Shown: positions 6,495 through 32,102, numbered from the stretch's first letter. The stretch is DNA of 64,000 bases from Promethearchaeota archaeon (GCA_016840085.1 JAEOTA010000085.1:61498-125497), one strand, 5' to 3'. A program made the numbers and translations. The notes: generated by a model not told the origin, from the letters alone.

Positions 6495-7859
6495 CTATTC
6501 TTTCCTATCTAATTCTTCTCTTCTTTTTAATAACAAATTTCTACATTGTGCAGATTCTTTTGAATAATAGAAATAAGGTAATAACCAAAAGAAACCTCCA
6601 AATAAGTAAATGATCAGCACTAAAGAAATAGCAAAGGGCAATAAAGATATATTTTTTTCTATCAAAAAAGACAATAATAAATTACCAAAAATCCCTCCAA
6701 TATTTACCATTAAACCATTCATAGCATTAGCAGTACTTCTTGCCTCAGGTGGGCATACATCAGCGTATATCGCGAATTGGTTACCCATTGGGAATGCAGC
6801 AAAAAAGAATCCTAGATACCCCAACATTAAGAAAAAAATCCAAGAAAAGATCACTTCCAAGAGAGTTGCAGCAAAAAAAGGAATTAAATAGAATGCTATC
6901 AACAATAAGACTCCAATAATTAGACCTAAAAATGAGATAATTACTCGTCCATTTATTTTTTCTTTATGTACATAAGAATCTCCTAATTTTCCCCCTATAA
7001 TTGATCCTAAAAGTGCACCACTACCTGATAGGATATAAAGAGTGGTAGCAATTAATTCGGCATCAGTTCCGTTAATTTTTGAACTTAAATAAAAAATAGC
7101 CCAGATTGCAAGTGTAGCATTAGCTATACCCGCAAAAAGTACTGAAATTAAAATACCTAATACTGATTTTGTCTTAAATAATTGTTTAAGGTTATTAAAA
7201 GTTAATTTATAATTATAATTGATTTCTCCTTTAAAATTCTCGAATTCTGGCTCAGTTCGACCTATTTCCGGTTCTATGCCAATATATATATATGATAATA
7301 AGGCTAAAAATCCTAAAACAAATCCTAAACCATAAGAATATCTCCATCCTGATGGTCCTGCGTAATTTCCCAAAATACCTCCAAATATAATTCCCATTCC
7401 AGATCCTAATATCATACCAAACTGCATTCCACCAAATCTTTTACCTCTTTCTTTTGGGGGGTAAAAATCTCCTATCATTGCAAATCCAAGTGGCATAAAT
7501 GCTCCTATACCAATTGCACTCATAGCGATAAAGAGTAAATAATAGGAGAAGTTTAAGGATAATGAGGCTAATCCAAATGAAATAATCCAAACAAGATTAA
7601 TATATGCAAATACTTTTTTTCTCGAAAATTTTTCAGCTATTTTATCACCATAATATCCAAAAATTAATATGCTAAAAATTCCAATAACTAAATAAATTGC
7701 TGTTAATACTCCAATTCCGAATTTTGTGGTGTTAGGAAGATTTAGTAGTAAATTATCTATATTTACAGGTAAAATTCCAGTACAAAAATATATCATAAAA
7801 TAAAGAAGAAATAAGGAAAAGTATGTTTTTTTTCTTTTTATTTGGTATATTTCATCCAT
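6495..7859 (-). CDS. MFS transporter
   Basis: About 12 hydrophobic segments; GYYGDK...SRKK and GGKLGD motifs; DFYPPKERG. Confidence 0.9.
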   Translation of the reverse strand: MDEIYQIKRKKTYFSLFLLYFMIYFCTGILPVNIDNLLLNLPNTTKFGIGVLTAIYLVIGIFSILIFGYYGDKIAEKFSRKKVFAYINLVWIISFGLASLSLNFSYYLLFIAMSAIGIGAFMPLGFAMIGDFYPPKERGKRFGGMQFGMILGSGMGIIFGGILGNYAGPSGWRYSYGLGFVLGFLALLSYIYIGIEPEIGRTEPEFENFKGEINYNYKLTFNNLKQLFKTKSVLGILISVLFAGIANATLAIWAIFYLSSKINGTDAELIATTLYILSGSGALLGSIIGGKLGDSYVHKEKINGRVIISFLGLIIGVLLLIAFYLIPFFAATLLEVIFSWIFFLMLGYLGFFFAAFPMGNQFAIYADVCPPEARSTANAMNGLMVNIGGIFGNLLLSFLIEKNISLLPFAISLVLIIYLFGGFFWLLPYFYYSKESAQCRNLLLKRREELDRKE

Positions 7860-8009
7860 TTTTTGAGTCAGTCTTTTCTACTTATTTTAAGTGATTTGGT
7901 TAGGATCTTTCGAATAATATTATTTGAATTTCATTTTATTTATAATAATGTTTATTTTCATTACAAAAAGATGAGTCTAATATTAGAAAAAGAACGAAAT
8001 TGATATTTA

Positions 8010-8444
8010 TTATAAGTCTATTTTTGTGAACTTTCCTATATCTTTATTAAGTGTTTTCAAAATTTTCTCTTCTAATTCTTCTGGTATATTTCTGAATGAA
8101 AAGTTTTCTAATTCTGGTAAAAGATTTTGAATCGTTAACCTAGTAATATGATCTAAATGATCACATAAGGCAAATAATTGAAAATGAATTGAATTTTCTA
8201 CTAATACAGCACCTCTGCTTACAGTGAAATAGTTTACTTGCTGTTGAAACGTATTTTTCTTGATATTATTCCAAAGATCACGAAATCCTAGTAAATAATG
8301 AGTATCTTTAGCAGTACTTCTCTTTTCATTTTGTAGACATAATTCCCAAGCAGAATCTTGGGTCCCTATGCAGATTGTATAAACAACACTTTTTTTTTTT
8401 AGTTTGGTTTCCTCTGATTTTCTAAATGTTAATCTTTGGAACAT
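8010..8444 (-). CDS. Hypothetical protein (frame open about 35 codons further upstream without ATG)
   Basis: ORF co-oriented with neighbours; no recognisable motif. Confidence 0.55.
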   Translation of the reverse strand: MFQRLTFRKSEETKLKKKSVVYTICIGTQDSAWELCLQNEKRSTAKDTHYLLGFRDLWNNIKKNTFQQQVNYFTVSRGAVLVENSIHFQLFALCDHLDHITRLTIQNLLPELENFSFRNIPEELEEKILKTLNKDIGKFTKIDL

Positions 8445-13505: not shown

Positions 13506-13976
13506 TTAACTGTTATCTTCTATACTCTTATAATGTCTGAAGGGACCTAATTCTTTAATTTGGTTAGTAAATTCTGTGATTACTTCAGCAAATCTCTTTC
13601 CTTCAGATGCACTGACCCATTCTAAACGCACCCTTTTTGGATCTACTCCTAATTGTTTAATCAGAATATTATGTAATCTCTCGAATCGTTCCTGTGTATA
13701 TTCATTTCCAGTAATATAATGACAATCTCCAATATGACATCCACTTACTAGAACTCCATCAGCGCCATTTTTTAAAGCTTTTAGGACAAATGATGGATCT
13801 ACTCTTCCAGAGCACATTACCCTAATGATTCGAATATTCGGAGGGTATTGAAACCGTGAGACTCCTGCTAAATCTGCTCCTGCATAACTGCACCAGTTAC
13901 AACAAAAAACTAAAATATGAGGTTCGAATTCTTCTTTTTTTACTTTTTTTCTTGATCGTGACATTTTCTTATTCAC
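13506..13976 (-). CDS. mvhD: Hydrogenase iron-sulfur subunit MvhD/VhuD, Cys form
   Basis: [41 protein letters not shown]. Confidence 0.95.
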
Positions 13977-16900
13977 CTTTAGAATTAATAGTTGCTTTTT
14001 CTAATAAATAGGAATCTATCATTGTATTGATCTGGTCAAAATCATAATGTTTTACTATTATTGCACCTACAGGGCAAGTTGCAGCACAAGTTCCACAACC
14101 TTTGCACACAGCTGCATTTATATTTGATTTCTTCACTATGATGCTTAGATCTTCAAATTCTTTAGTTATTTCCGTAAGCTGTATTGCTTTATAAGGACAA
14201 ACCTCCTCACATTTACCACATCCTATACATTTTTCTTCTAAAACCTCAGCTACCAATCCAGATGTGGTAATTTTATCAGCACTTAAAAATCTACTTGCTC
14301 TGCCCGCTGCACCGTTAGCTTGTGAAATTGAATCTTGAATATTTTTCGGCCACTGAGCACAACCACATAAGAAAATCCCATCTGTAGCAAAATCTAAGGG
14401 TCTTAATTTAACATGAGCTTCTAAGAAGAAACCGTTTTTATCCAATGGAACTTTCAGCATCATTGCTAATTCTTTAAGATTGTCAGCTGGAATCATGGGT
14501 GTTGAAAGTATTACCAAATCTGTTTCAAATTCAATATTATCTTTCAAATTAGTATCAAATACTTTTATTTCAAACTTTTCTGAGCTTCTTTTTTTCTTTT
14601 TTACTACTGGCAGATTATCTAGGTCATATCTTAGAAAAATTGCATCTTGTCTACGTTCACGATAAAATTCCTCAAAATATTTCTTAGCCATTTGCAAATC
14701 CCTATAAATCACAACTATTTCTAACTCAGGCTTCTTTTCTTTTAAGATTCTAATGTTTTTAATTGAATTCGCGCAACATATATTAGAACAGTAAGTAATT
14801 CCTTCGTTTTGTCTAGCATTTACGCATAAAATCATTGTTATTCGATTTATATTTTCTAACCATGATTTATCCTTGCTTTTTAATTTCTGTTCTAACTCCA
14901 ATTGGGTTATTACATTATTATTTTTATCGTTATAGCCAAAAAGACCATTAGGTTTATACTCTTGACCACCAGTAGCAACTATGATAGTTCCAATTTTTAA
15001 CTCATGGATTTCGTTATTTGAATCATTTAATATCACGTCATAATTTCCAACATACCCTTTAATACTCTTAATTTCAGCATTAAAGAAGGTTTGGATGTTA
15101 TTGTTTTTTTCTATCTTTTCTTTTGTTTCATTTAATAAATCTAACGCATTTTTATGAACTGGATACAATACATTTAAAAATCTTAGGTTTCCCCCTAATT
15201 CACTTTCTTTTTCAACAATAATAGTTTTAAATCCTTGATTAGCAGTATTTAATGCAGCAGTCATTCCCGAAATACCTCCACCAATAATTAATGCTGTGTG
15301 TGTAATATCTATTTTATCTTCCTTTTGTGGTTTTAATAATCTTGATTTAGCAACATGCATTCGAATTAAATCCATGGCTTTTTCTGTAGCTGCTTCTTTT
15401 TCTTTCATATGAACCCATGAACATTGATCTCGAATATTTACAAGTTCAAAGAGATATTTGTTTAAACCCGCTTCCTGACATGTTTCTTGAAATAAGGATT
15501 CATGGGTTCTAGGAGTACAAGACGCAACAATAAACCTATTTAAATCATATTCATCAATTAATTCTTTAATCCTTATTTGGGAATCAGGTGAACAAGAGTA
15601 TAGATTATCTTCACACAACACTACATTTGGGAGGGTTTTTACGTATTCTACAACTTTAGGGACATCTACATAATTTCCTATATTAATTCCACAATGACAA
15701 ACCATTACACCTATTCTTGGTTCATCTGTAATTTTAACCTCTTTTTCTGGTATATCAAATATTTTCTCTTGTATTTTTGTGAATTTAACAGCATTTAGTA
15801 ACTCGGCAATTTGCGCAGCCACCCCGCTGGCATCTGCAACTGTCTCAGGGATGTCCATTGGGCCTTGGCAGAATCCACATAAGTAAATTCCTTCTCTTGT
15901 TGACTTTAATTTATTAAAATATGATTTTTCTTGGAAGAAATTGTATTTATCCAATTCAATACCTAACACTTCTCCTAACTCATTAACTCCTTTTGACGGA
16001 ACTAGAGGTGAAGCTAAAACTACTAAATTTGCACGGAAATCCTTAAATTCACCTGTCTTTAAATCTTCATAATGTATGAGTAAATCATTTGTTGCAGGAT
16101 TTTCTTCGATGGTACTGATCTTAGATTGGAAATATTGTACTCCATATTCTTCTTGTGCTCTTTGTGTGAATTCGTAAAAATTTTTACCATATGCGCGAAT
16201 ATCATGTCGAAATATATAACATTTAGAATTTTCAGAATGCTCTTGAGTAATAATTGCTTGTTTTGCAGTGTATGTGCAACAAACACTAGAACAATAAGGT
16301 ACATTTTCATGAAGATCTCTAGAACCCGCACATTGAACGAAAGCGATTACCTCAGGTTCTTCTTCATCGCTTAACCGCATAACATGCCCGCTAAATGGTC
16401 CAGATGCGCATAATATTCTTTCATATTCAAGAGCACTTACTACATTTTCGTATCGATAACCCCATCTTGAAGATAATTTTTCAGCAGGCATCTGAAAACC
16501 TGTAGCAACTACCACAGCTCCAACTTTAATCTCAAATTCTTGTGACTTCTGCTCAAAATCTATTGCATCAGCAGAGCAAGCTTTTTTACATACTTGACAT
16601 ACGCCCTTCGTTAAATATAAACACATTTCTGGATCAATTAAATAAATAGGGGGTACTGCTTGAGGAAAAGGAATATATATGGATTTTCTTGTACCAATAT
16701 TCATTTCAAAAGGATTTGGAGCCATTATTTTTGGGCACTTGTTTGAACATTCTCCACATCCCTTACACTTTGTTTCATCAACATATCGAGGTTTCTTTAG
16801 AATTTTGGCAGTAAAATTACCAGGTTCTCCATCAATTTTAAGAACTTCATGATATGTCATTAATTCAATATTAGGATTACGAAAGACTTCAACCATTTTA

Positions 16901-17079
16901 GGGGCGAGGATGCATAATGAACAATCTAATGTTGGAAAAGTTTTATCCAATTGAGCCATTCTTCCCCCAATTGAAGGTGACTTTTCTACTAAATAAACTT
17001 TAAATCCTAATTCCGTTAGATCAAGTGAAATTTGAATTCCAGCTATACCTCCTCCAATTACTAAAACTGAACCTTCCAT
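13969..17079 (-). CDS. hdrA: Long (two FAD-module) heterodisulfide reductase subunit A-like flavoprotein
   Basis: GGGIAG and GGGISG; [16 protein letters not shown]; internal IGVMVCHCG and ASCTPRTH; YCSxxCC twice; C-terminal 2x[4Fe-4S]. Confidence 0.95.
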
Positions 17080-18510: not shown

Positions 18511-21500
18511 TTACATTGCTAATGTCCTAATCATAGCATTGATTTGTTCAAAATCGTAATGTTTAATAGAAATTGCCCCAACTGGACAATTCACTGCACA
18601 AGTTCCACATCCTTTGCATAAACCTGAATTTACAGAAATTTTTTTTATTGGTAGACTTACCTCTTCAAATTCTTTTAGGACGTTTGTAATTTCTATTGCG
18701 TTATAGGAACATGCTTCCTCGCATGTTCCACATCCGATACACACATCTGGATCTACTTCCGCTATTAATCCAGATGTAGTAATTTCCTCTGCGATTAAAA
18801 ACCTACATGCTCTTCCTGCTGCACCATTTGCTTGTGATATTGAACCTTGTATATTTTTTGGCCAATGAGCACATCCACACAAGAAGATACCATCAGTAGC
18901 AAAATCTAATGGTCTTAATTTAACGTGAGCCTCGAGAAAAAAACCATTTTTGTCTAGAGGAACCTTGAGCATCTTTGCTAGCTCATCTGAATTGTCAGCT
19001 GGAATCATAGGTGTCGATAATACTATTAAATCTGTTTCAAATTTGATATTATCTTGTAGATTGGTATCAAAAACTTTAATTTCGAACTTACTTGTTCCAC
19101 TATTGCTCTCTTTAATTGTAGGGGGAGCATCTAAATCATACCTCAAAAAAATAGCATCTTTTCTTCGTTCACGATAATAACTTTCGAATTCTTTCTTTGC
19201 CATCTGAAGATCTCTATAGAGAACTATTAATTTGAGGTCGTGCTTTAATTCTTTTAGGATGTTAATATTCTTTATAGCACTTTCACAACATATATTTGAA
19301 CAATATGTTATCCCTTTCTTTTGTCTAGCGTTCACACATAATAGGGTAGTAATATGATTAAGTTTATCTAACCATGATTTATCTTCATCCTTTAATTTCT
19401 GTTCTAGTTGTAATTGTGTAATTACGTTGTGGTTCGTATATCTATATTCAAAAAATTCATTAGGTTTTAATTCTTGTCCTCCAGTGGCAACAATAATAGT
19501 ACCAATTTTTAACTCATGAATCTTATTATCTGAATCAATAAGTGAAACATTATAATTACCAAGATATCCATTAATATCGTTTAAATTAGAGTTTAAAAAG
19601 AGTTGAATGTTCTTATTTTGTTCAACCTTTACTCTGGTTTCGTTTAATAAGACTGAAGCATCCTCTTGAGTAGGATATAGCATATTTAAGAATCTTAAAT
19701 TTCCACCTAAATATTTCTCTTTTTCTATAAGATAAACAATAAATCCTTGATTAGCGATATTTAATGCAGCAGTCATTCCGGATATTCCTCCACCAATCAC
19801 CAATGCAGTTTGAGTAATTTTTAATTTCTTTTCTTCTTGTGATTTTAATAATCTAGATTTAGCAACTCCCATTCTTATTAAATCAATTGCTTTTTCCGTA
19901 GCTAGCTCCTTTTCTTTCATATGTACCCATGAACATTGATCACGGATATTCACCATTTCAAACAAGTATTTATTTAATCCCGCTTCTTGACATGTCTCTT
20001 GGAATAGAGATTCGTGTGTTCTTGGCGTACAAGAAGCTACAATAAATCTATTTAAATTATATTCACCTATTACTTCTTTAATTCGTTCTTGAGAATCTGA
20101 ACTACAAGAATATAAGTTATCTTCACAAAAAACTACATTAGGCAACTTTTTTATGTGTTCTATAACTTGAGGAATATCAATATATTTTCCAATATTAATA
20201 CCGCAATGACAGATAAGGACCCCAATTCTTGGTATATCCGTTTCTTTAACTAATTTTTCTGGTATCTTAATAATTTTTTCTTTTGTTTCAGTAAATTTAA
20301 AGGAATTAAGTAAAGTTGCCACTTGTGAAGCTACCCCACTAGCATCAGCCACTGTTTCTGGTATATCCATTGGACCTTGACAAAAACCAGCTAAAAAAAT
20401 ACCTTCTTTAGAGGATAAAGATTTAGTAAAATATGATTTCTCTTTAAAGAAATTATAATCATCCAATTCGATATCTAAAACTTTAGCTAATTCTTTAGTT
20501 CCAGCTGAAGGGACTAGAGGTGTAGCTAATACCACTAGATTTGTGTTAAAGTCCTTAAATTCACCAGTTTTTAAATCTTCATAATGAATTACTAAATCAT
20601 TCGTTTCTGGATCTTCTATTATTCTACTAATTTTAGTCTGGAAATATTTTACTCCATATTCTTCTTGAGCTCTTTGGGTAAACTCATAAAAATTTTTGCC
20701 ATAAGCTCTAACATCATGCCTAAATACAAAACACTTTGAGTTTTCAGAATGTTCTTTCGTAATGATGGCTTCTTTGGCAGTATACATGCAACACACACTA
20801 GAACAATAGGGAATTCCCTCGCGTAAATCCCTTGAGCCCGCACATTGAATAAATGCAATTGTTTCCGGCTCATTCTCATCGCTAGGACGTAAAATATGTC
20901 CCCCAAAGGGACCAGAAGCCGATAACATTCGTTCATATTCTAAAGCACTTACCACATTTTTATAATTATAACCCCATCTTGAGGTTAACTCTTCTCCTAA
21001 CACATCATATCCAGTTGCAACAACGATAGCACCAACGTTTAATTTGATTTCTTGAGGTTTTTGTTCATAATCTATTGCTTCTGCCTTACATTCTTTCTCA
21101 CAAACCCCACATACTCCTTTAGTGAGTTTTAAGCACAATTCAGGGTCAATTAAATATACAGGAGGAACTGCTTGAGGAAAAGGAATGTAAACAGACTTTC
21201 TTTTACCTAAATTCATATCAAAGATGTTAGGAGATTCAATCTTAGGACATATAACAGCACAGTCACCACATCCTTTACATTTAGTCTCATCAATATAACG
21301 AGGTTTCTTTAGGACTGAAACTACAAAATTTCCTGGCTTTCCTGAAACTTTTTGGACTTTATGATAAGTCATTAATTCAATATTAGGATTTCTAAATACT
21401 TCCACCATTTTAGGGGCAAGAATACATAAACTACAATCGTTTGTAGGAAAGGTTTTATCAAGTTGAGCCATTCTTCCTCCAATTGAAGGTGTTTTTTCTA

Positions 21501-21591
21501 CTAAATAAACTTTAAAGCCTAATTCAGTTAAATCTAAAGAACTTTGTATCCCTGCTATTCCACCACCAATAACTAACACTGATCCCTCCAT
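18511..21591 (-). CDS. hdrA: Long HdrA-like flavoprotein; close paralog of 13969..17079
   Basis: Same motif order; long near-identical stretches with 13969..17079. Confidence 0.95.
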   Translation of the reverse strand: MEGSVLVIGGGIAGIQSSLDLTELGFKVYLVEKTPSIGGRMAQLDKTFPTNDCSLCILAPKMVEVFRNPNIELMTYHKVQKVSGKPGNFVVSVLKKPRYIDETKCKGCGDCAVICPKIESPNIFDMNLGKRKSVYIPFPQAVPPVYLIDPELCLKLTKGVCGVCEKECKAEAIDYEQKPQEIKLNVGAIVVATGYDVLGEELTSRWGYNYKNVVSALEYERMLSASGPFGGHILRPSDENEPETIAFIQCAGSRDLREGIPYCSSVCCMYTAKEAIITKEHSENSKCFVFRHDVRAYGKNFYEFTQRAQEEYGVKYFQTKISRIIEDPETNDLVIHYEDLKTGEFKDFNTNLVVLATPLVPSAGTKELAKVLDIELDDYNFFKEKSYFTKSLSSKEGIFLAGFCQGPMDIPETVADASGVASQVATLLNSFKFTETKEKIIKIPEKLVKETDIPRIGVLICHCGINIGKYIDIPQVIEHIKKLPNVVFCEDNLYSCSSDSQERIKEVIGEYNLNRFIVASCTPRTHESLFQETCQEAGLNKYLFEMVNIRDQCSWVHMKEKELATEKAIDLIRMGVAKSRLLKSQEEKKLKITQTALVIGGGISGMTAALNIANQGFIVYLIEKEKYLGGNLRFLNMLYPTQEDASVLLNETRVKVEQNKNIQLFLNSNLNDINGYLGNYNVSLIDSDNKIHELKIGTIIVATGGQELKPNEFFEYRYTNHNVITQLQLEQKLKDEDKSWLDKLNHITTLLCVNARQKKGITYCSNICCESAIKNINILKELKHDLKLIVLYRDLQMAKKEFESYYRERRKDAIFLRYDLDAPPTIKESNSGTSKFEIKVFDTNLQDNIKFETDLIVLSTPMIPADNSDELAKMLKVPLDKNGFFLEAHVKLRPLDFATDGIFLCGCAHWPKNIQGSISQANGAAGRACRFLIAEEITTSGLIAEVDPDVCIGCGTCEEACSYNAIEITNVLKEFEEVSLPIKKISVNSGLCKGCGTCAVNCPVGAISIKHYDFEQINAMIRTLAM

Positions 21592-22617: not shown

Positions 22618-25600
22618 TTAACCTTGAATTAAAAGTGCAGAAATCATAGCGTTGATTTGCTCAAAACCAAAATGCTTAATTAAAATTGTTGAATTAGGGC
22701 ATTGTGCACTGCATGTGCCACAACCTTTACAAAGCGCAGGATTTACATGAGATTTTTTAATAGTAAATGTGATATCTTCAAACACTCGTTCTTCCTCTAT
22801 TAATTCGATAGCATTAAATTGGCAGACTTCCATACAGCTTCCACAGCCAATGCAATTTTCTTCTATTACAACAGCCACAAGCCCAGATGTTACAAGTTTT
22901 TCTGTGCTTAAAATTTTAACTGCTTGAGCAGCAGCTCCATTGGATTGTGCAATTGATTCTCGAAGATCTTTTGGTGAATGTGCACACCCACATAAATATA
23001 TACCATCTGTAGCAAAATCAATTGGTCTCAACTTAACATGAGCTTCCAAAAAGAATTTATCCTCATTAAGTGGAACTTTTAACATTTTTGCTAACTCTTC
23101 ATTTTCTTTTATGGGTGCCACAAGCCCCGTACTTAGCACAAGTAAATCAGGATTTATTTCAAGGTCACCTAAATCTGGATTGTTTACTGTAATTGTTAAC
23201 TTTTTATTTTTAATATTTAATTCTGGAGGCTTAGATTCATCGAATCTAAGAAATATAACTTTATTATCTCGTGCTAAGTTATAGTATTTTTCTTTAAAAC
23301 CATATGTTCGAATATCACGATATAAAATTACTATTTCTATATTAGGGTTGATTTCTTTTGCTTTTAACGCATTTTTAATAGCTTCTGAACAACAGATTCT
23401 GCTACAATAAGGGTGATCTTCATTTCTAGATCCAACGCATTGAATCATTACTATTGAATTCAATCCCTTTATTTTATCCGTAGTAAAAAGATCTTTTTCA
23501 AATTCAGTTTGGGATATAATTCTTTGATCTTGCCCGAAATTATATTCTTTTGGTTGATATTCTTTTGCACCAGTGGCTACAATGATTATCCCATGTTCCA
23601 GATCAACACTTTTGCTATTATTTCCGTAACTTACATTTGTGGAAAAATTCCCTATATATCCTGATATTGTATTGATTTGAGCATTTTTAAATATGTGGAT
23701 TAGTTGATTATCTTTAACTTTTTTAATTAAGTTTTCAATATATTCCTGAATATCATCATTTTCGAGGGTTCGATAAATATTTTTAGCAAGCCCTCCTAGA
23801 GAACCTTCCTTTTCAATTAAGAAAACTTCATAACCTTGAGAAGCTAGATTTAATGCTGCTGACATTCCAGATACACCCCCACCTATAATTAGACCTTTAT
23901 TTATTACGGTGATTTCTTGTTCTTGTAACGGGATTAATTGGCTAGCCTTCGCTACTGACATCCTCAATAAGTCTTTTGATTTTGCTGTTGCTTTTTCAGG
24001 TTCATGCATATGAACCCATGAACATTGATCGCGGATATTCACCATTTCAAAAAGATATTTATTCAAACCGGCCTCTCTTATTGTCGCTTGAAATAAGGAT
24101 TCATGGGTTCTTGGAGTACATGAGGCAACTATAACTCTATTAAGTTGGTTTTCTTCGATTTTTTCTTTAATATTAGTCTGAGTATCTGCTGAACAAGTAT
24201 ATAAATTATGCTCTGCATAGACTACATCAGGTAAAGTTTTAACATATTCAACTACATTAGGAACATCAACAACCCCACCAATATTTATCCCGCAATGACA
24301 AATAAATATTCCAATTCGCGGCGGTTGATCGCTTACATCCAATTCTTCGGGAAGTTCTTTCTTAGAGACTAATTTATTTCTTGCTTCTGATAGAAGAACA
24401 TTTACATATCCAGCAGCAGCACTAGCTTCTATAACTGTTTCTGGAATATCTTTAGGTGTTGCGAAAGCCCCACAAACATAAATCCCAGGTCTTGAAGTTT
24501 CTACTGGGTTAAAAGTTCCAGTTTTACAAAACCCATATTCATTTAACTGGATATTTAATTTCTGTGCTAATTCTTTTGCTTATTGATTAGGTTGCATTCC
24601 TACATAAAGGACGACTAGATTAAAAATTTCTACAATAATTTTTCCATTTCCCGTTTCATAATAAACCTTTAAATCTTTAGAGTCCGGAATTTCTTTAATA
24701 GAAGATATTCTACGTCTGATATATCTTACTCCATACTCATCCTTCGCTCGTTCAATATATTTATCAAAATCTTTACCATATGCCCTGATATCCATTGTAA
24801 AAATAGTTGGTTCTATAATATTCATATGCTCTTTTGCTATTACAGCTTCCTTTGTAGTATACATACAACACACAGAAGAGCAGTAATCAATTCTATGCTT
24901 TCTATCCCTTGAACCTATACAATGTAAAAAGGCTATTTTTTTAGGGATAATTCCATCAGAAGGGCGAATTATTAAACCTGAGTGTGGTCCACTAGCACTG
25001 AGTATACGTTCAAATTCAATACTAGTAATTACATTTAAATGCTTTCCGTAACCAAATTCCGTTAAAGGAGTAGGATCATATTCATCAAATCCAATTGCTA
25101 ATACTACAGCTCCTACATCTAGACTAATTAATTTATCTTGAAGTTCATAATCGATAGCTTTTGCTTTACATATCCCTTTACAAATACCACAACCTATACA
25201 TTTTTCTTTATTAATTGAGAACACTAATGGAACGGCCTGAGGAAATTTTACAGAAATTGCTGCATTGATAGAAAGTCTTTCATTAAAGAAATCTATAGCC
25301 TCTATAGGACATTGTTGAGCACATAAACCGCACCCTGTACATTTAATCTGATCCAAACGAAGTGTTCTTTGAGTTAAATCAACTTTAAAATTACCTGGAA
25401 CACCTTCGATTTTTTCTATTGATGAATTAATTAAAATATCGATATTTTCATGTCGACCAGTTTGTACCAATTTCGGGGCAAGAATACATATTGCACAGTC
25501 ATTAGTTGGAAATGTCTTATCTAATTGAGACATAACGCCTCCAATACTGGTTGTAGATTCTGCAAGATATACTTTATAGCCTGAATCTGCTAAATCTATA

Positions 25601-25659
25601 GAAGTTTGAATACCTGCAATTCCGCCACCAATAACTAAGACAGCTCCGACTTTCTCCAT
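22618..25659 (-). pseudogene. hdrA: Long HdrA-like gene (1013 codons) split by one in-frame TAA at 24580-24582
   Basis: ORFs 24580..25659 and 22618..24342 are in the same frame. The gap translates AKELAQKLNIQLNEYGFCKTGTFNPVETSRPGIYVCGAFATPKDIPETV..., homologous to the paralogs. Confidence 0.85.
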
Positions 25660-26936
25660 TACTTCTCCTCAACAGTTTGATTAGGTTCTATTATATTTAT
25701 AAAATCCACTAAAAACTCTGAAAAATCTAAAATTTCAATAGAAGAAAAATCATCATAGTCTTTTTTTAGACAATTTAAATGCATTCGGCATTTTGGACAT
25801 GATGTAATCATTTTTGTTCCAACAGCTTTAGCTTCTAAAAGACGTTTATATCGCAAAGCTTTAGAACGTTCATTACAATTCATCCAAGAATTTACTCCAC
25901 AACAATAAGAATTTTCTTTATTATGTTCCATTTCTTTAAAATTATAACCAATAGTTTTCAAATGCTTGAAGATTTCTCGGACTTCCTCAATTATCTTATT
26001 ATCCTTTGGTAAAAACCTACTCAACCTGCAAGGGTCATGGTAAGTAAAAGGAATAACCTCATTCGAATTGTTAGGATTTTTAAATTGAACTTTTCCCTGC
26101 TTCCATTTATCAAAAATATATTCAATTATATGTTTAACTTCAAATTTTTTATTAAAATCTTCAAACAATTTTAGATAATCAATTTTAAAGGTTCTATAAC
26201 ACTCAGCACATGCAGTAACAATTGTTGTAGCTCCTGTTTCTTCAAACATTTTTACATTTTTTTTTGCTAATTCAATAAAGCTTTCGAATTTTGCTTGGCC
26301 CCAATATAAATCGTGTCCACAACATATCTCATTTTTTAGAACAACTACCGGATCTTTTTCTAAGTGACAAATAATCTCAAGTGTGCTTTCTGCTATAGAT
26401 AGTGAGTCTTCAAATTCATAATTAAAAAAAGGTAAACATCCCACATAATATAAAATATTTCCCTTATCTGATGTTTTACAACCTTTTGGAATCCAATCTA
26501 AAGGTCTCTCAATTTCCATATTATCTTGACTCATCATTTCTGACATCAAAGGATAAATACCTTTATGAGCAATAGAACGATCAGGATTTTGAATATCTTT
26601 CATACGCATTTTATATCTAGCAATTCTGACAATATCGGCAAAGTTAATATCTTTAGGGCAATGTTGTAGACAACTATTACACATTAAACAATCCCATAAT
26701 ACCTGGCTATTAATAATCTCATCTTCAAAGCCTTCTAATATCATTTGAATAATTCTACTAGGCGTAAATTTTTGTACTTTACTGATTTGGCACACGCCTG
26801 AGCAACGGGCACATTGATAACATTTTTTTAATAAGTTAATTAAATCTGGTTCATATATTTTTTCTATATATAAATTAGATTCATTCTTTTCTTGTTTTAT
26901 CTTTTTAAGTTTTTCTGTCTCAGTTATAGGATTCAC
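25659..26936 (-). CDS. HdrD-like Fe-S oxidoreductase with CCG domains; paralog of 17079..18377
   Basis: CYQCARCSGVC, CLMCNSCLQHCP, EICCGH, YHDPC, YCCG. Confidence 0.9.
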   Translation of the reverse strand: MNPITETEKLKKIKQEKNESNLYIEKIYEPDLINLLKKCYQCARCSGVCQISKVQKFTPSRIIQMILEGFEDEIINSQVLWDCLMCNSCLQHCPKDINFADIVRIARYKMRMKDIQNPDRSIAHKGIYPLMSEMMSQDNMEIERPLDWIPKGCKTSDKGNILYYVGCLPFFNYEFEDSLSIAESTLEIICHLEKDPVVVLKNEICCGHDLYWGQAKFESFIELAKKNVKMFEETGATTIVTACAECYRTFKIDYLKLFEDFNKKFEVKHIIEYIFDKWKQGKVQFKNPNNSNEVIPFTYHDPCRLSRFLPKDNKIIEEVREIFKHLKTIGYNFKEMEHNKENSYCCGVNSWMNCNERSKALRYKRLLEAKAVGTKMITSCPKCRMHLNCLKKDYDDFSSIEILDFSEFLVDFINIIEPNQTVEEK

Positions 26937-28069: not shown

Positions 28070-29566
28070 TTATTCCTTTTCCAATTTGATTGGTTTACAA
28101 TTTTTTCTTTTAATACCAGCAATCCTTTCTAATAAGGGTTGCCCAGGTTTAACCGCCTTTAAGCTTTTGGATTCTATAAATCCTGTTTTAATAGCTCCTT
28201 TAAAAATTTCTTCCCCTTTCTTATTTCGAGTGATAACAGAAGACCATCCACTCCCAGAACCAATTGAACCAATTGAGATGTCAGCATAATCTGCTGTTAA
28301 ATCTTCACAATAATGGCAGTTATTGCGAGCATAAGATTTAACATCTTTAAGCGGAACTTTTAAATCTTCTCCGGTATCCAAATATATGATAAATTCACCA
28401 CCACTAATGTCCATCTTTGTTACTTTATTAAAATCTTGGTTAAATTGCTCTTTAATTAATCCAAGGACTCCTTCATAAGGAAAAGATTCCATGCAAAAAA
28501 GTCCTATTTTATATTTTATATTCTTGAAAAAAGGTACTCCACTTGGAAAAAGATTACCCTTTTCAATAGCATTCATCATACATGGAGTACCTACAACAGC
28601 TATATTGTCATATTTCTTGGCTTTATCGATAATAGCTAAAGTAGATGCGTTTGCATATTTAGTTCCCCCCGTCTTATATAGATCTTTCAAATTATCCACG
28701 ATGACGGGTTCAGGCTTCCATTTCTCTTCTGAGTGCTGTACTGCTACAATCGCATCGACTAATTTATTCTTAAGTAAGTATTCAAGTAAAGAAGTAACAA
28801 TCCCCCCATCTTGTCGTACTTTTTTAATATCATCCTTAGTGGTGCTGGCAGAATAGGTATTGATATAACCATTAATTTTTTCTGAAAATTTTAAAGAATT
28901 ATCTCGCTTATTTATACTCTTACCCGCTTGTTCAATTGAAAATGATCTCGGGCAAACAGAATAACATAAACCGCATTTCATACAAGTTTCATCATCGATC
29001 TCTAAAGTATCTGCTGTTACTGTAAGAGCATTTACTGGGCAAATTGATGAGCACCAACCACATTGACAGCATACTTCAGAATCAAACACGATTGAAACAG
29101 GTTCAAAAAAATGTTCAATAAAATCATCAGGTATATCTTTAACTTGATATCTATAGAAAAATTCTTTTTCCTCAATTTCTTTTTCTTCTCCTTTTACTTT
29201 CTTAATAACCTTTTTAATTTTAATCTCTATTTCTTCTTCAATATAACCTTGTTCTTTTAGATAAATTATATCTCGTATTACATTTTCTGGTGGAAAATTG
29301 TCTATAATTTTCACAATTTCTTCCAGAAATAATAGTTCTTTACCTTTTAGTTCTTCTAATACTAACTTGCGTTCTGTTTCGGCATCAACCATAGCATCTA
29401 AAATCTGATAAAATTCTTCCTCTGAATATTTTCCTGCTCCTAAGATTTCTTCTTTTGCTTCAAAAAAAGCACGAACCTGAAAATTTTCTGCCGCTTTATG
29501 TGTTGCTTCCATTAATAATTTAGGGGATATCCCATTAAAGGTTATATCTTTTTCTATTTGAACCAT
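28070..29566 (-). CDS. FrhB/FdhB family protein with ~155-aa N-terminal extension
   Basis: CCQCGWCSSICP, CMKCGLCYSVCP, QDGGIVT, GTKY, VGTPC, GLFCME, CHYCEDLT.DYADISIG. Confidence 0.9.
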   Translation of the reverse strand: MVQIEKDITFNGISPKLLMEATHKAAENFQVRAFFEAKEEILGAGKYSEEEFYQILDAMVDAETERKLVLEELKGKELLFLEEIVKIIDNFPPENVIRDIIYLKEQGYIEEEIEIKIKKVIKKVKGEEKEIEEKEFFYRYQVKDIPDDFIEHFFEPVSIVFDSEVCCQCGWCSSICPVNALTVTADTLEIDDETCMKCGLCYSVCPRSFSIEQAGKSINKRDNSLKFSEKINGYINTYSASTTKDDIKKVRQDGGIVTSLLEYLLKNKLVDAIVAVQHSEEKWKPEPVIVDNLKDLYKTGGTKYANASTLAIIDKAKKYDNIAVVGTPCMMNAIEKGNLFPSGVPFFKNIKYKIGLFCMESFPYEGVLGLIKEQFNQDFNKVTKMDISGGEFIIYLDTGEDLKVPLKDVKSYARNNCHYCEDLTADYADISIGSIGSGSGWSSVITRNKKGEEIFKGAIKTGFIESKSLKAVKPGQPLLERIAGIKRKNCKPIKLEKE

Positions 29567-29618: not shown

Positions 29619-29686
29619 ACCCCTTCCCTTGCGAGGAGAATCTTCTTATAACTAATATTTTTTTATAAGAATCATTCCAAAGGGGT
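29619..29686 (-). promoter_or_regulatory. Eukaryote-like SECIS element (cis-acting RNA hairpin)
   Basis: Minus strand: ACCCCUU-U-GGA-AUGA-UUCUUAUAA-[AAAAAUAUUAG]-UUAUAAGAA-GA-UUCUCCUCGCAAGGG-AAGGGGU. AUGA/GA core, perfect 9-bp upper stem (29671-29663 with 29651-29643), A-run at the 5' side of the loop, 7-bp lower helix (29686-29680 with 29625-29619). Lies immediately after two TGA-containing genes. Confidence 0.85.
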
Positions 29687-30133
29687 AGTTAAGAGTTCCT
29701 TCATTTCAACTTCTGCTTCTTCTTCACCGATGTTAAGAGGACTTGGCCCTATTCTGCGAATTTTTTCAAAGGAATCTTCAACGCTTTTTACTAATTTTTC
29801 TGATTCTGCACTTGAGCACCAGTACATATTAATCCGCTCACTTCCAAATCCTCGTCTATCAAGAATTCTTTTAGCAAAGTCTATGTGTTTTGAGGCTGTA
29901 AAATTACCTTCTTTAAATTGACATTCATTTTCACGTCATCCAACAACCATGACGCCGTCAGCTCCGCTTTTTATAGCATATAATATATGCTTTACGTCAA
30001 CTCGTCCTGTACACCTTACTTTAATGATCTTTACTGAGGGTGTATATTTTAAACGGGAAACTCCAGCTAAATCCGCTGCTCCATAGCCTCATTTTAAACA
30101 AGCAAACATTATTATCTTATAACTATTTTCCAC
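29672..30133 (-). CDS. mvhD: Selenocysteine-containing MvhD/VhuD (153 aa; U15, U66)
   Basis: GTG start after [34 protein letters not shown]...VRCTGRVD...VMVVG-U-RENECQF. TGA at 30091-30089 and 29938-29936 align with Cys of CNWC and GCHIGDC in the paralogs. Missed by the ORF track. Confidence 0.93.
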
Positions 30134-30155: not shown

Positions 30156-32102
30156 TTAAGTCTCTAATAATGCAGAGATCTCCGAATATAGTTGATCATC
30201 TCGGAAATATTTAATATCTATAGCTTCTGTAGGACAACAACTAGCACATATACCACAGCCATCGCAGTTTAGATCATCAACAATAGCACTTTCTGCCTCC
30301 TCATCAATAATAATCGCGTTCTTTGGACATTCCTTTTCACATCTTCTGCAGGATATACAAAAATCCTTGTTGACTTCTGCAATTATAAGTTCAAGATCAA
30401 TCTCTCCAGCAGATGTTAATTCAGCTACTTTACTGGCAGCTGCTCTGGCTTGTGAAACAGAATATGCTATATTTTTTGGACCTTGAGCAAATCCAGCAAT
30501 AAAAATACCTCTGGTCTTAGTTTCTTGGGGCATCAATCCAAAATGAGATTCTGTAAGAAAGCCATTTCGATCTATGTCCAAATTCAAAATTTTCGCAATT
30601 TGTTGTGTTCCTTCTGAGGGTAAAGCAGCACTTGATAAAACAACTAAATCAGCATCAATTATTACAATCTTATCTGTTAATGTTGAATAAACCCGAACTT
30701 TCGCTTTTTTGGTCTCAGGATCTTCAGTGATCTCGCCAACTTTTCCTCGAATCATTCTAATCCCCGCATCTTTCGCCTTCTCATAATACTCTTCGAAACC
30801 TTTTTCGTTTGTTCTGATATCTATATAACAAATTGTGATACTTGCATCAGGAAATTCTTCTAAAAGTAATTGTCCATTCTTAAGAGCTAACATGCAACAA
30901 ACACCGCTACAATATGGTCTGTCAGTTTCTCTAGATCCGACGCACTGAATAAACACAATTTCTTTTGGTTTTTTATCATCCGAAATTCGATGTACATGTC
31001 CTTCTAATGGTCCATTAGGAGCTAAAATTCTCTCAAGTTGAGCTTGAGTAATTACATTTTCAAATTCACCATAACCATATTCCCCAAAAGGTTCATAGAT
31101 ATCCCATCCAGTGGCGATAATTATTGTACCGACATCAAAATTAACTTCTTTTGGAACTTGGCTAAAGTCTATGGCATCTAATTCACATGCATCAACACAA
31201 GAAAAACATTCAACACACACATCTCTATTGATATCATAAATAAAGGGTACTGCTTGTCCAAATGCTATATCAATCGCTTTTCGAGCACCCAAATATGCAT
31301 CAAAATAGTTGGTTATATAAGTTGGACAGACTTCTGTACAAGCTCCACAACCATTACATAATTTAGGATCAACGAATCGCGGTTTCATCTCAACAGTAAC
31401 ATTATACTTTCCTACATTTCCTGTAATTTCCTTTACTTCAGTATAACTTAAAATCTCAATATTTTCATTCCGATTAACCTCCAACATCTTTGGACCACAA
31501 ATTCATATAGCACAATCATTTGTAGGGAATGTTCTATCTAGTTGAGCCATTCTCCCTCCTATAGTAGTATTTTTTTCTACTAAATATACTTTAATTCCTT
31601 GATTGGCGAGATCGAGAGCAGCATTCATACCTGCAATTCCACCTCCTACTACTAATGTAGCTTTTGTAACTGGTACTGTTTTTATAGGTATAACTTCTAA
31701 TCGCTTTGCCCTCTCAATACCAGCTTTCACTAAAATTTTCGCCTTTTCTAGAGCCTCTTCTTTACTTTCAGTACACCAACTACAATGTTCCCTCACATTT
31801 ACCATTTGAAAATAGTAAGGGCTTAAACCTGCTTTTGCTAGTGAATCTCGATAAATTGGTTCGTGAGTTCTTGGAGTTCAAGCACTTGCAACAATTCGAT
31901 TTAAATTCTTTTCTTTAATATCTTCTATTATTTCATTCTGTGCGGCATCAGTACATAGAAAAGCATTTTTCTTTGAAATTATTATACTTTCGTCAAGATC
32001 TTTTACATACTCTACTAATTTATTGCAATCGACTTTGCTATTAATATTTATGCCTCAGTGACATGCATAGAATCCAATCCTATGATTTTGGTTATTATTC
32101 AT
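30156..32102 (-). CDS. hdrA: Selenocysteine-containing heterodisulfide reductase subunit A (648 aa; U16, U75, U200)
   Basis: ATG 32102; RIGFYACH-U-GINI (TGA 32057-32055); RIVASA-U-TPRTHE (TGA 31880-31878); TFPTNDCAI-U-ICGPKM (TGA 31505-31503). One frame through to TAA 30158-30156, joining ORFs 31503..31805 and 30156..31487. Confidence 0.95.

Follow-up and report, generated by a model that had tools for sequence, protein, structure and literature searches.

An hdrA homolog with three in-frame TGA codons in a genome of the Promethearchaeota raises two questions: whether it is an intact selenoprotein gene or a series of fragments produced by decay or sequencing error, and what selenocysteine (Sec) might do at these positions of a bifurcating enzyme.

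The hdrA-vhuD locus and its SECIS element

Within the window (the whole 64,000-nucleotide stretch of DNA that was analyzed), translation of the hdrA interval with TGA read as Sec (U) yielded one uninterrupted frame, in which the only internal stops were the TGAs at codons 16, 75, and 200 and which ended at a TAA codon (Table 1). Each of the three TGAs aligns to a Cys of solved methanogen HdrA chains, and the chain from M. maripaludis (9sfi_A) has X, i.e., Sec, at the column of codon 200. The original prediction of a three-Sec HdrA (U16, U75, and U200) is borne out by this single intact frame. Its statement that methanococcal HdrA has Sec at DCxxU likewise holds, this residue being Sec197 in PMC13518236.

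The protein matched 9sfi_A (E 1.2e-196, residues 7-646) and 5odc_A (E 8.7e-190). Pfam recognized a FAD/Rossmann module (NAD_binding_8, Pyr_redox_2, and FAD_oxidored at 149-199) and two ferredoxin modules, and a GxGxxG motif (VVGGGIAG) is present in the FAD-binding thioredoxin-reductase-like domain. The ferredoxin Cys (249/252/255/259, 296/299/302/306, 582/585/588/592, and 613/616/619/623) and the flavin domain's own cluster motif, C..C...CC (Cys 387/398/402/403), are conserved in orthologs, with all of these columns being Cys except for five sporadic Sec (columns 299, 302, and 616). The N-terminal cluster domain and the DCxxC pair are likewise complete (C14, U16, C50, U75, C197, and U200). Collectively, these sequence comparisons strongly support the identification of the protein as an HdrA of the methanogen type, with four domains and with the motifs for FAD and Fe-S clusters.

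Table 1. Coordinates of the features discussed in the text, counted from the first letter of the window unless a contig is named.
Feature	Coordinates	Strand	Remarks
hdrA, four-domain methanogen-type HdrA	30156..32102	-	648 codons + TAA; from translation, structure-chain match, and Pfam
UGA codon 16 (CHUG)	32055..32057	-	N-terminal domain; Sec in 77/77 orthologs
Codon 50, TGT (Cys) here	31953..31955	-	Sec (TGA) in 56/78 orthologs
UGA codon 75 (SAUTPR)	31878..31880	-	N-terminal domain; Sec in 78/78 orthologs
Cys110 (HCSWC), TGT	31773..31775	-	Clade-specific; Cys in 74/80 orthologs, Val in paralogs
UGA codon 200 (DCAIU)	31503..31505	-	Canonical HdrA Sec site by FAD-domain Cys197; Sec in 80/80 orthologs
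Cys202 (U-I-C-GPK), TGT	31497..31499	-	Clade-specific; Cys in 80/80 orthologs
vhuD/mvhD (FlpD family)	29672..30133	-	22 nt after hdrA; GTG start at 30133
vhuD Sec15	30091-30089	-	In-frame TGA
vhuD Sec66	29938-29936	-	In-frame TGA
lokiSECIS, single	29619..29686	-	AUGA at 29675-29672; after vhuD
FrhB/FdhB-family gene	28070..29566	-	Two [4Fe-4S] motifs (Pfam); next gene of the operon as judged by synteny
tRNA-Sec, intron-split	G000:C32:24374-24530 (= L133:1451-1607)	+	34-nt D-stem intron and 30-nt T-loop intron

A standard listing of open reading frames splits hdrA into pieces of 100 and 443 amino acids, and exactly these two pieces have been deposited as separate proteins in a public collection; the forecast that automatic pipelines would call this gene as fragments was therefore correct. 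It is a reminder that multi-Sec hdrA genes of this type sit as fragments in public protein sets.

The two in-frame TGAs of the adjacent vhuD gene occupy the same two Sec positions as those of M. maripaludis VhuD (9sfi_K). A SECIS element was found only after vhuD and none was found after hdrA. The element comprises a perfect 9-bp stem, an 11-nt loop that starts with AAAAA, a GA, and a lower helix (ACCCCU/AGGGGU), and the UGA stop codon of vhuD lies within its AUGA core. This matches the lokiSECIS geometry published in PMC4989117. A scan of the window against Rfam at gathering thresholds matched no family, such that the lokiSECIS has no matching curated model there. In congeners the SECIS is found at the equivalent place and is conserved with some compensatory changes: pairing is kept in 93.7% of cells, and both partners have changed in four pairs.

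The gene that follows vhuD belongs to the FrhB/FdhB family, and a gene of this family is also next in every orthologous locus whose flank is complete (60/60). Past this gene lie another frhB-like gene, an HdrD-like gene with CCG and ferredoxin domains by Pfam (positions 25659-26936, three genes downstream), and more HdrA/FlpD genes. Methanogen-type HdrA reduces a heterodisulfide together with CCG-domain partners (HdrB/HdrC). Judged by synteny, the frhB-like genes are putative members of the hdrA-vhuD operon.

Conservation and decoding of the UGA codons

A scan for orthologs in one genome per species recovered 80 loci, with 75-82% identity, from MAGs of the Promethearchaeota (Loki). Columns 16, 75, and 200 were Sec in every ortholog scored (Table 1), and column 50, which is Cys in the present gene, was Cys in the 22 orthologs that did not have Sec there. 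Sec was also present at column 299 in one ortholog, at column 302 in three, and at column 616 in one, and no TGA fell on a non-Cys column among the 80 orthologs. This placement of TGAs on Cys columns is far beyond chance. The three TGAs named in the original prediction are accordingly retained across relatives, which show no random stops. A FastTree phylogeny of 79 sequences required at least eight Sec/Cys switches at column 50 and none at columns 16, 75, and 200.

Four Sec were present in 51 orthologs, three in 21, and five in five; by number of Sec, the present hdrA, with three, thus ranks low within its clade. The closest orthologs in 40 related genomes (79-83% identity) mostly have four TGAs, and the stop codon of hdrA was TAA or TAG in 17/17 congeners checked. 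The fifth Sec of the five-Sec orthologs is at codon 302 in L064, L088, and L121, at codon 299 in L123, and at codon 616 in L073. In all five it falls on a ligand position of a classical CxxCxxCxxxC ferredoxin motif, and therefore Sec-ligated clusters are tolerated in this clade. Together with vhuD, these orthologs have seven UGAs per gene pair, which is one above the published maximum.

The original prediction also pointed to positions that are Cys in this protein and not in its paralogs. At columns 110 and 202 this proved real: the paralogs of the same genome have Val at column 110 and Leu or Ile at column 202, loci of the paralog group in related genomes have Val at column 110 and Leu or Val at column 202, and Cys110 and Cys202 are a conserved signature of the clade (Table 1). 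Other Cys of this signature were found in 76/77 (Cys26) and 78/80 (Cys622) orthologs. The motifs that had been quoted for the paralogs (CHCG, ASCTPR, DCSLC/DCAIC, QCSWV, and C-I-L-APK) all occur in long HdrA genes of the window.

Two orthologous loci (L052 and L076) have no full uninterrupted frame, and one of them has a TAA inside the match (G019); these breaks are possibly local assembly errors or truly broken copies. Several orthologs with ~80% identity (L050, L053, L057, L069, and others) are in MAG records titled Hermodarchaeota, Hodarchaeota, Odinarchaeota, or Thorarchaeota. The records so titled belong to the DZ/H/QM isolate series, and their phylum labels look unreliable because the orthologs that they contain sit among Promethearchaeota records.

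The genome (4.68 Mb, 29.5% G+C, 98.8% complete) is a MAG with an estimated contamination of 7.6%. A global reassignment of TGA was rejected because TGA is the ordinary stop of 250 of its 1866 long open reading frames. Genome searches identified SepSecS (390.7 bits), a protein of the KTI12/PSTK family (113 bits), and an EFSec-like GTPase whose score (235.6 bits) is below the cut-off of the bacterial selB model (242.25 bits). Two adjacent selD genes of the Sec type (G000:C78:5990-6754 and 7319-8158; L014 and L015) each have one in-frame TGA themselves.

ARAGORN and the Rfam tRNA-Sec model, when applied to the genome, missed the tRNA-Sec gene in its unspliced form (Rfam score of 25.9 bits) because two introns split it. 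A search with the tRNA-Sec of a congener as the query gave a 98% match at G000:C32:24424-24482, and once the two-intron gene had been revealed in this way, an assembly gap was rejected as the explanation for the apparent absence of tRNA-Sec. The spliced gene is recognized by ARAGORN as tRNA-SeC(tca), with a 9-bp acceptor stem, a 4-bp T stem, and a 7-bp D stem. It precedes SepSecS by ~520 nt, and the EFSec-like gene is ~5 kb away on the other strand, an arrangement already described for Loki. The tRNA-Sec of three congeners is an uninterrupted 89-nt gene, and the 2016 Loki paper (PMC4989117) describes a tRNA-Sec with a T-loop intron only. ARAGORN detected only 8-13 tRNA genes in the 4.7-Mb genome, most of them with introns, and non-canonical introns probably conceal many tRNA genes in this lineage, as they do tRNA-Sec.

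Collectively, these observations indicate that the locus is an intact and functional pair of selenoprotein genes, hdrA and vhuD, in a Lokiarchaeon (Promethearchaeota), an interpretation to which we assign a probability of about 0.92 on the evidence of sequence. Decoding as Sec is strongly supported for the three UGAs of hdrA and the two of vhuD, as is the direction of this decoding by one eukaryote-like SECIS after vhuD, at a distance of ~2.4 kb from the first UGA.

It is possible, although we would not expect it, that decoding is conditional, with the UGAs terminating translation at low selenium and Cys-type HdrA paralogs then taking over in a selenium-dependent isoenzyme switch. Such a switch is compatible with the selenoprotein interpretation and not opposed to it. 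The genome codes for two full-length Cys-type HdrA beside four full-length Sec-type paralogs (with 3, 2, 3, and 2 TGAs, and with Sec positions in common), and Methanococcus has Sec/Cys isoenzyme pairs with this use (PMC13518236). However, the Cys-type paralogs are 40-41% identical to the present HdrA and have other gene contexts, and therefore they are not simple back-ups.

Decay and sequencing error, by which the TGAs would be real stops or mistakes and only fragments would be made, are excluded and carry a vanishingly small probability: gene callers do deposit the two fragments and the assembly is a MAG with some estimated contamination, but all three TGAs recur in 77-80 independent assemblies from other species, conservation is 75-82% on either side of the TGAs with no random stops, the SECIS and Sec machinery are present, and an ortholog divergence of 18-25% rules out copies of one contaminant.

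Possible roles of the Sec and Cys residues

Alignment to 5odc_A equates residues 14, 16, 50, 75, 107, 197, and 200 of the present protein with residues 11, 13, 46, 71, 103, 194, and 197 of that chain. Sec200 is at the canonical DCxxC/U site beside the bifurcating FAD, whereas Sec16 and Sec75 are at two of the four conserved Cys positions (14, 16, 50, and 75) of the mobile N-terminal domain, which bears the 'shuttle' [4Fe-4S] cluster HA3. According to PMC9012536, the N-terminal [4Fe-4S] cluster in the crystal structure is bound by Cys of the N-terminal domain and, in trans, by Cys197 of the partner protomer. In contrast, PMC13580544 and PMC13518236 treat the DCxxC/U pair as additional, non-cluster Cys that hold an unknown ligand or act as a selenylsulfide relay from FAD to the clusters. 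In PMC13518236, density is reported that would correspond to a Cys-Sec197 bridge linking cluster A3 with FAD, and PMC13580544 names HdrA Cys202/Cys205 and MvhD Cys16 as extra conserved cysteines on the electron path. At the level of residues, Cys197 is the only HA3 ligand named in the available text of these papers, which disagree on it.

Comparison with VhuD provides an indirect view of the N-terminal positions. MvhD Cys16 aligns with VhuD Sec15 of the present locus and MvhD Cys67 with VhuD Sec66, and by elimination among the five conserved Cys, MvhD Cys67 should be a ligand of the [2Fe-2S] cluster. When the HdrA N-terminal domain and VhuD are aligned as profiles, the match is weak (P 0.003, probability under 10%) but collinear, and it pairs C14/U16/C50/U75 with C12/U15/C41/U66. 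This homology mapping suggests that Sec75 may be a ligand of HA3 and that Sec16 may not be.

The predicted structure of the N-terminal domain (pLDDT 92.7) superposes on solved HdrA N-terminal domains (5odc/8rvu) with a TM score of 0.9 and an rmsd of ~1 Å. In a Foldseek search with this model, MvhD chains were among the first non-HdrA matches (TM ~0.5), as one of many flavodoxin-like folds. A wide VIA-align search returned generic flavodoxin-like folds only and is therefore silent on the MvhD relationship. In the model, residues 14-16, 50, 75, and 107-110 are at the C-terminal ends of four parallel strands, and Cys110 is probably near the cluster because residues 107-110 are on the same face of the domain as 14-16, 50, and 75.

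On this basis, we propose that Sec75, together with Sec50 in most orthologs, would ligate HA3 with Cys14 and, in trans, Sec200, such that Sec75 and Sec200 of the partner protomer could help to hold or exchange the cluster. Sec16 would be a non-ligand, 'spare' relay residue and the counterpart of MvhD Cys16. Selenium may speed thiol/selenol or ligand exchange during the arm movements that pass electrons among VhuD, FAD, and HA3. The conserved FrhB-like neighbors, in turn, could point to a donor module of the deazaflavin type, or a related one, in place of a hydrogenase.

The original prediction had described these residues as Fe-S ligands. As a statement about all of them this is not supported, with the literature being split on codon 200 and codon 16 mapping to the non-ligand MvhD Cys16, but it may apply to Sec75, which maps to the probable ligand Cys67. 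The retuning of electron bifurcation that the original prediction ascribed to the two further Sec would be a putative effect. It is unlikely that Sec16, Sec75, and Sec200 each ligate the N-terminal [4Fe-4S] cluster directly and that they shift its potential. The binding of this cluster by N-terminal-domain Cys and the partner Cys197 (PMC9012536) would fit such an arrangement, as would the number of Sec-capable positions (16, 50, 75, and 200), which equals the number of ligands of one cluster, and the tolerance of Sec at true ferredoxin ligand positions in five orthologs. However, the N-terminal domain has four conserved Cys, of which the cited description can accommodate no more than three beside the trans Cys. 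Codon 16 aligns to a Cys that PMC13580544 considers additional and non-cluster, and for two cryo-EM papers the DCxxC/U pair is the site of a relay or of an unknown ligand and does not ligate a cluster.

We consider it just as improbable that no Sec ligates a cluster and that all are selenols in a selenylsulfide/diselenide exchange chain from VhuD to FAD and HA3. The density for the Cys-Sec197 bridge (PMC13518236) and the extra path cysteines named in PMC13580544 are in keeping with a chain of this kind, and the clade has added Cys110 and Cys202 by existing Cys/Sec, which creates two strings, one (C-x-x-C) on the N-terminal domain's cluster face and the other (C-x-x-U-x-C) beside FAD. Against this, MvhD Cys67, which corresponds to VhuD Sec66 and through it to HdrA Sec75, should by elimination ligate the [2Fe-2S] cluster, and HA3 requires ligands from the N-terminal domain, where only four conserved Cys are available.

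Positions 16, 50, 75, and 200 and the added Cys110 and Cys202 may mark the residues at which electrons are handed over among the VhuD [2Fe-2S] cluster, FAD, and HA3. We suggest, as a speculation of fairly low probability, that they could form a selenium-rich site at which ligands are exchanged or an additional metal site, which may be that of the 'unknown ligand' seen on the Cys pair of the methanogen enzyme by cryo-EM. If true, such a site would be a mechanistic variant not yet described.

Comparison with known systems

The multi-Sec HdrA is of a kind already known because Mariotti et al. (2016; PMC4989117) published HdrA/VhuD with a shared SECIS. They described Loki HdrA in which five positions can hold Sec, with a maximum of four Sec per protein, a HdrA-VhuD tandem in which a single lokiSECIS after VhuD serves up to six UGAs over ~2 kb, and HdrA stop codons that are TAA/TAG only, and Huang et al. 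(2024; PMC11227280) carried this further in a survey of hundreds of Asgard MAGs. The novelty that the original prediction implied for multi-Sec HdrA is therefore lost. The Loki hdrA/vhuD pairs of PMC4989117 and the present one have the same gene order, strand, and 22-nt spacing, Sec on Cys columns that include the ~200 site, and the same SECIS after vhuD only, with its AUGA...GA core, 9-bp stem, and 11-nt A-rich loop. They also have in common a ~31-nt T-loop intron in tRNA-Sec and an EFSec gene ~5-6 kb away on the other strand. There is no difference in kind: the present gene has three Sec, whereas four is the usual number among its orthologs and five is reached in five of them, compared to the 2016 maximum of four.

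Four points were not found in the available text of the 2016 and 2024 papers or of related papers: the invariance of columns 16, 75, and 200 versus the switching of column 50, the five-Sec HdrA orthologs, the clade-specific Cys110 and Cys202, and the parallel between the Sec positions of the HdrA N-terminal domain and VhuD. These are increments and not a new kind.

HdrA of Methanococcales and Methanopyrus (M. maripaludis 9sfi; PMC13518236) is ~50% identical to the present protein over the full length, with the same order of domains and the same Cys motifs. The DCxxU Sec is common to both, and VhuD has two Sec at identical positions. In contrast, the methanogen HdrA has a single Sec (Sec197) and its own archaeal-type SECIS, whereas the present HdrA has two more Sec in the N-terminal domain, Cys110 and Cys202, and a eukaryote-like SECIS in common with vhuD. 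The genes next door are vhuGAU in those methanogens and FrhB-like genes in the present, non-methanogen host. The MvhAGD-HdrABC complexes of M. thermolithotrophicus and M. marburgensis (5ODC; 9SW2-6), on whose HdrA the N-terminal-domain model superposes as described above, are all-Cys at the Sec positions and have Val and Leu at columns 110 and 202, where the present protein has Cys.

As a discovery, the locus adds little: an HdrA with several Sec and a eukaryote-like SECIS that is shared is the textbook case of the Lokiarchaeota. Its value is in comparative data on the Cys/Sec pair by the bifurcating flavin and on the electron route to the shuttle cluster, which are the subject of two 2026 cryo-EM papers. 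The three positions that are always Sec in ~80 species, the one that has flipped at least eight times, and the two added Cys provide a list of residues for mutation or structural inspection.

Elsewhere in the window, positions 22618-25659 of the minus strand comprise an open reading frame for a 359-residue flavin-domain HdrA and another of 574 residues with an N-terminal domain and a C-terminal part. In the genome search this pair behaves as one long HdrA with a single TAA, and it represents either a pair of split genes or a copy, now broken, of the long fused HdrA encoded at 13969-17079 and 18511-21591.
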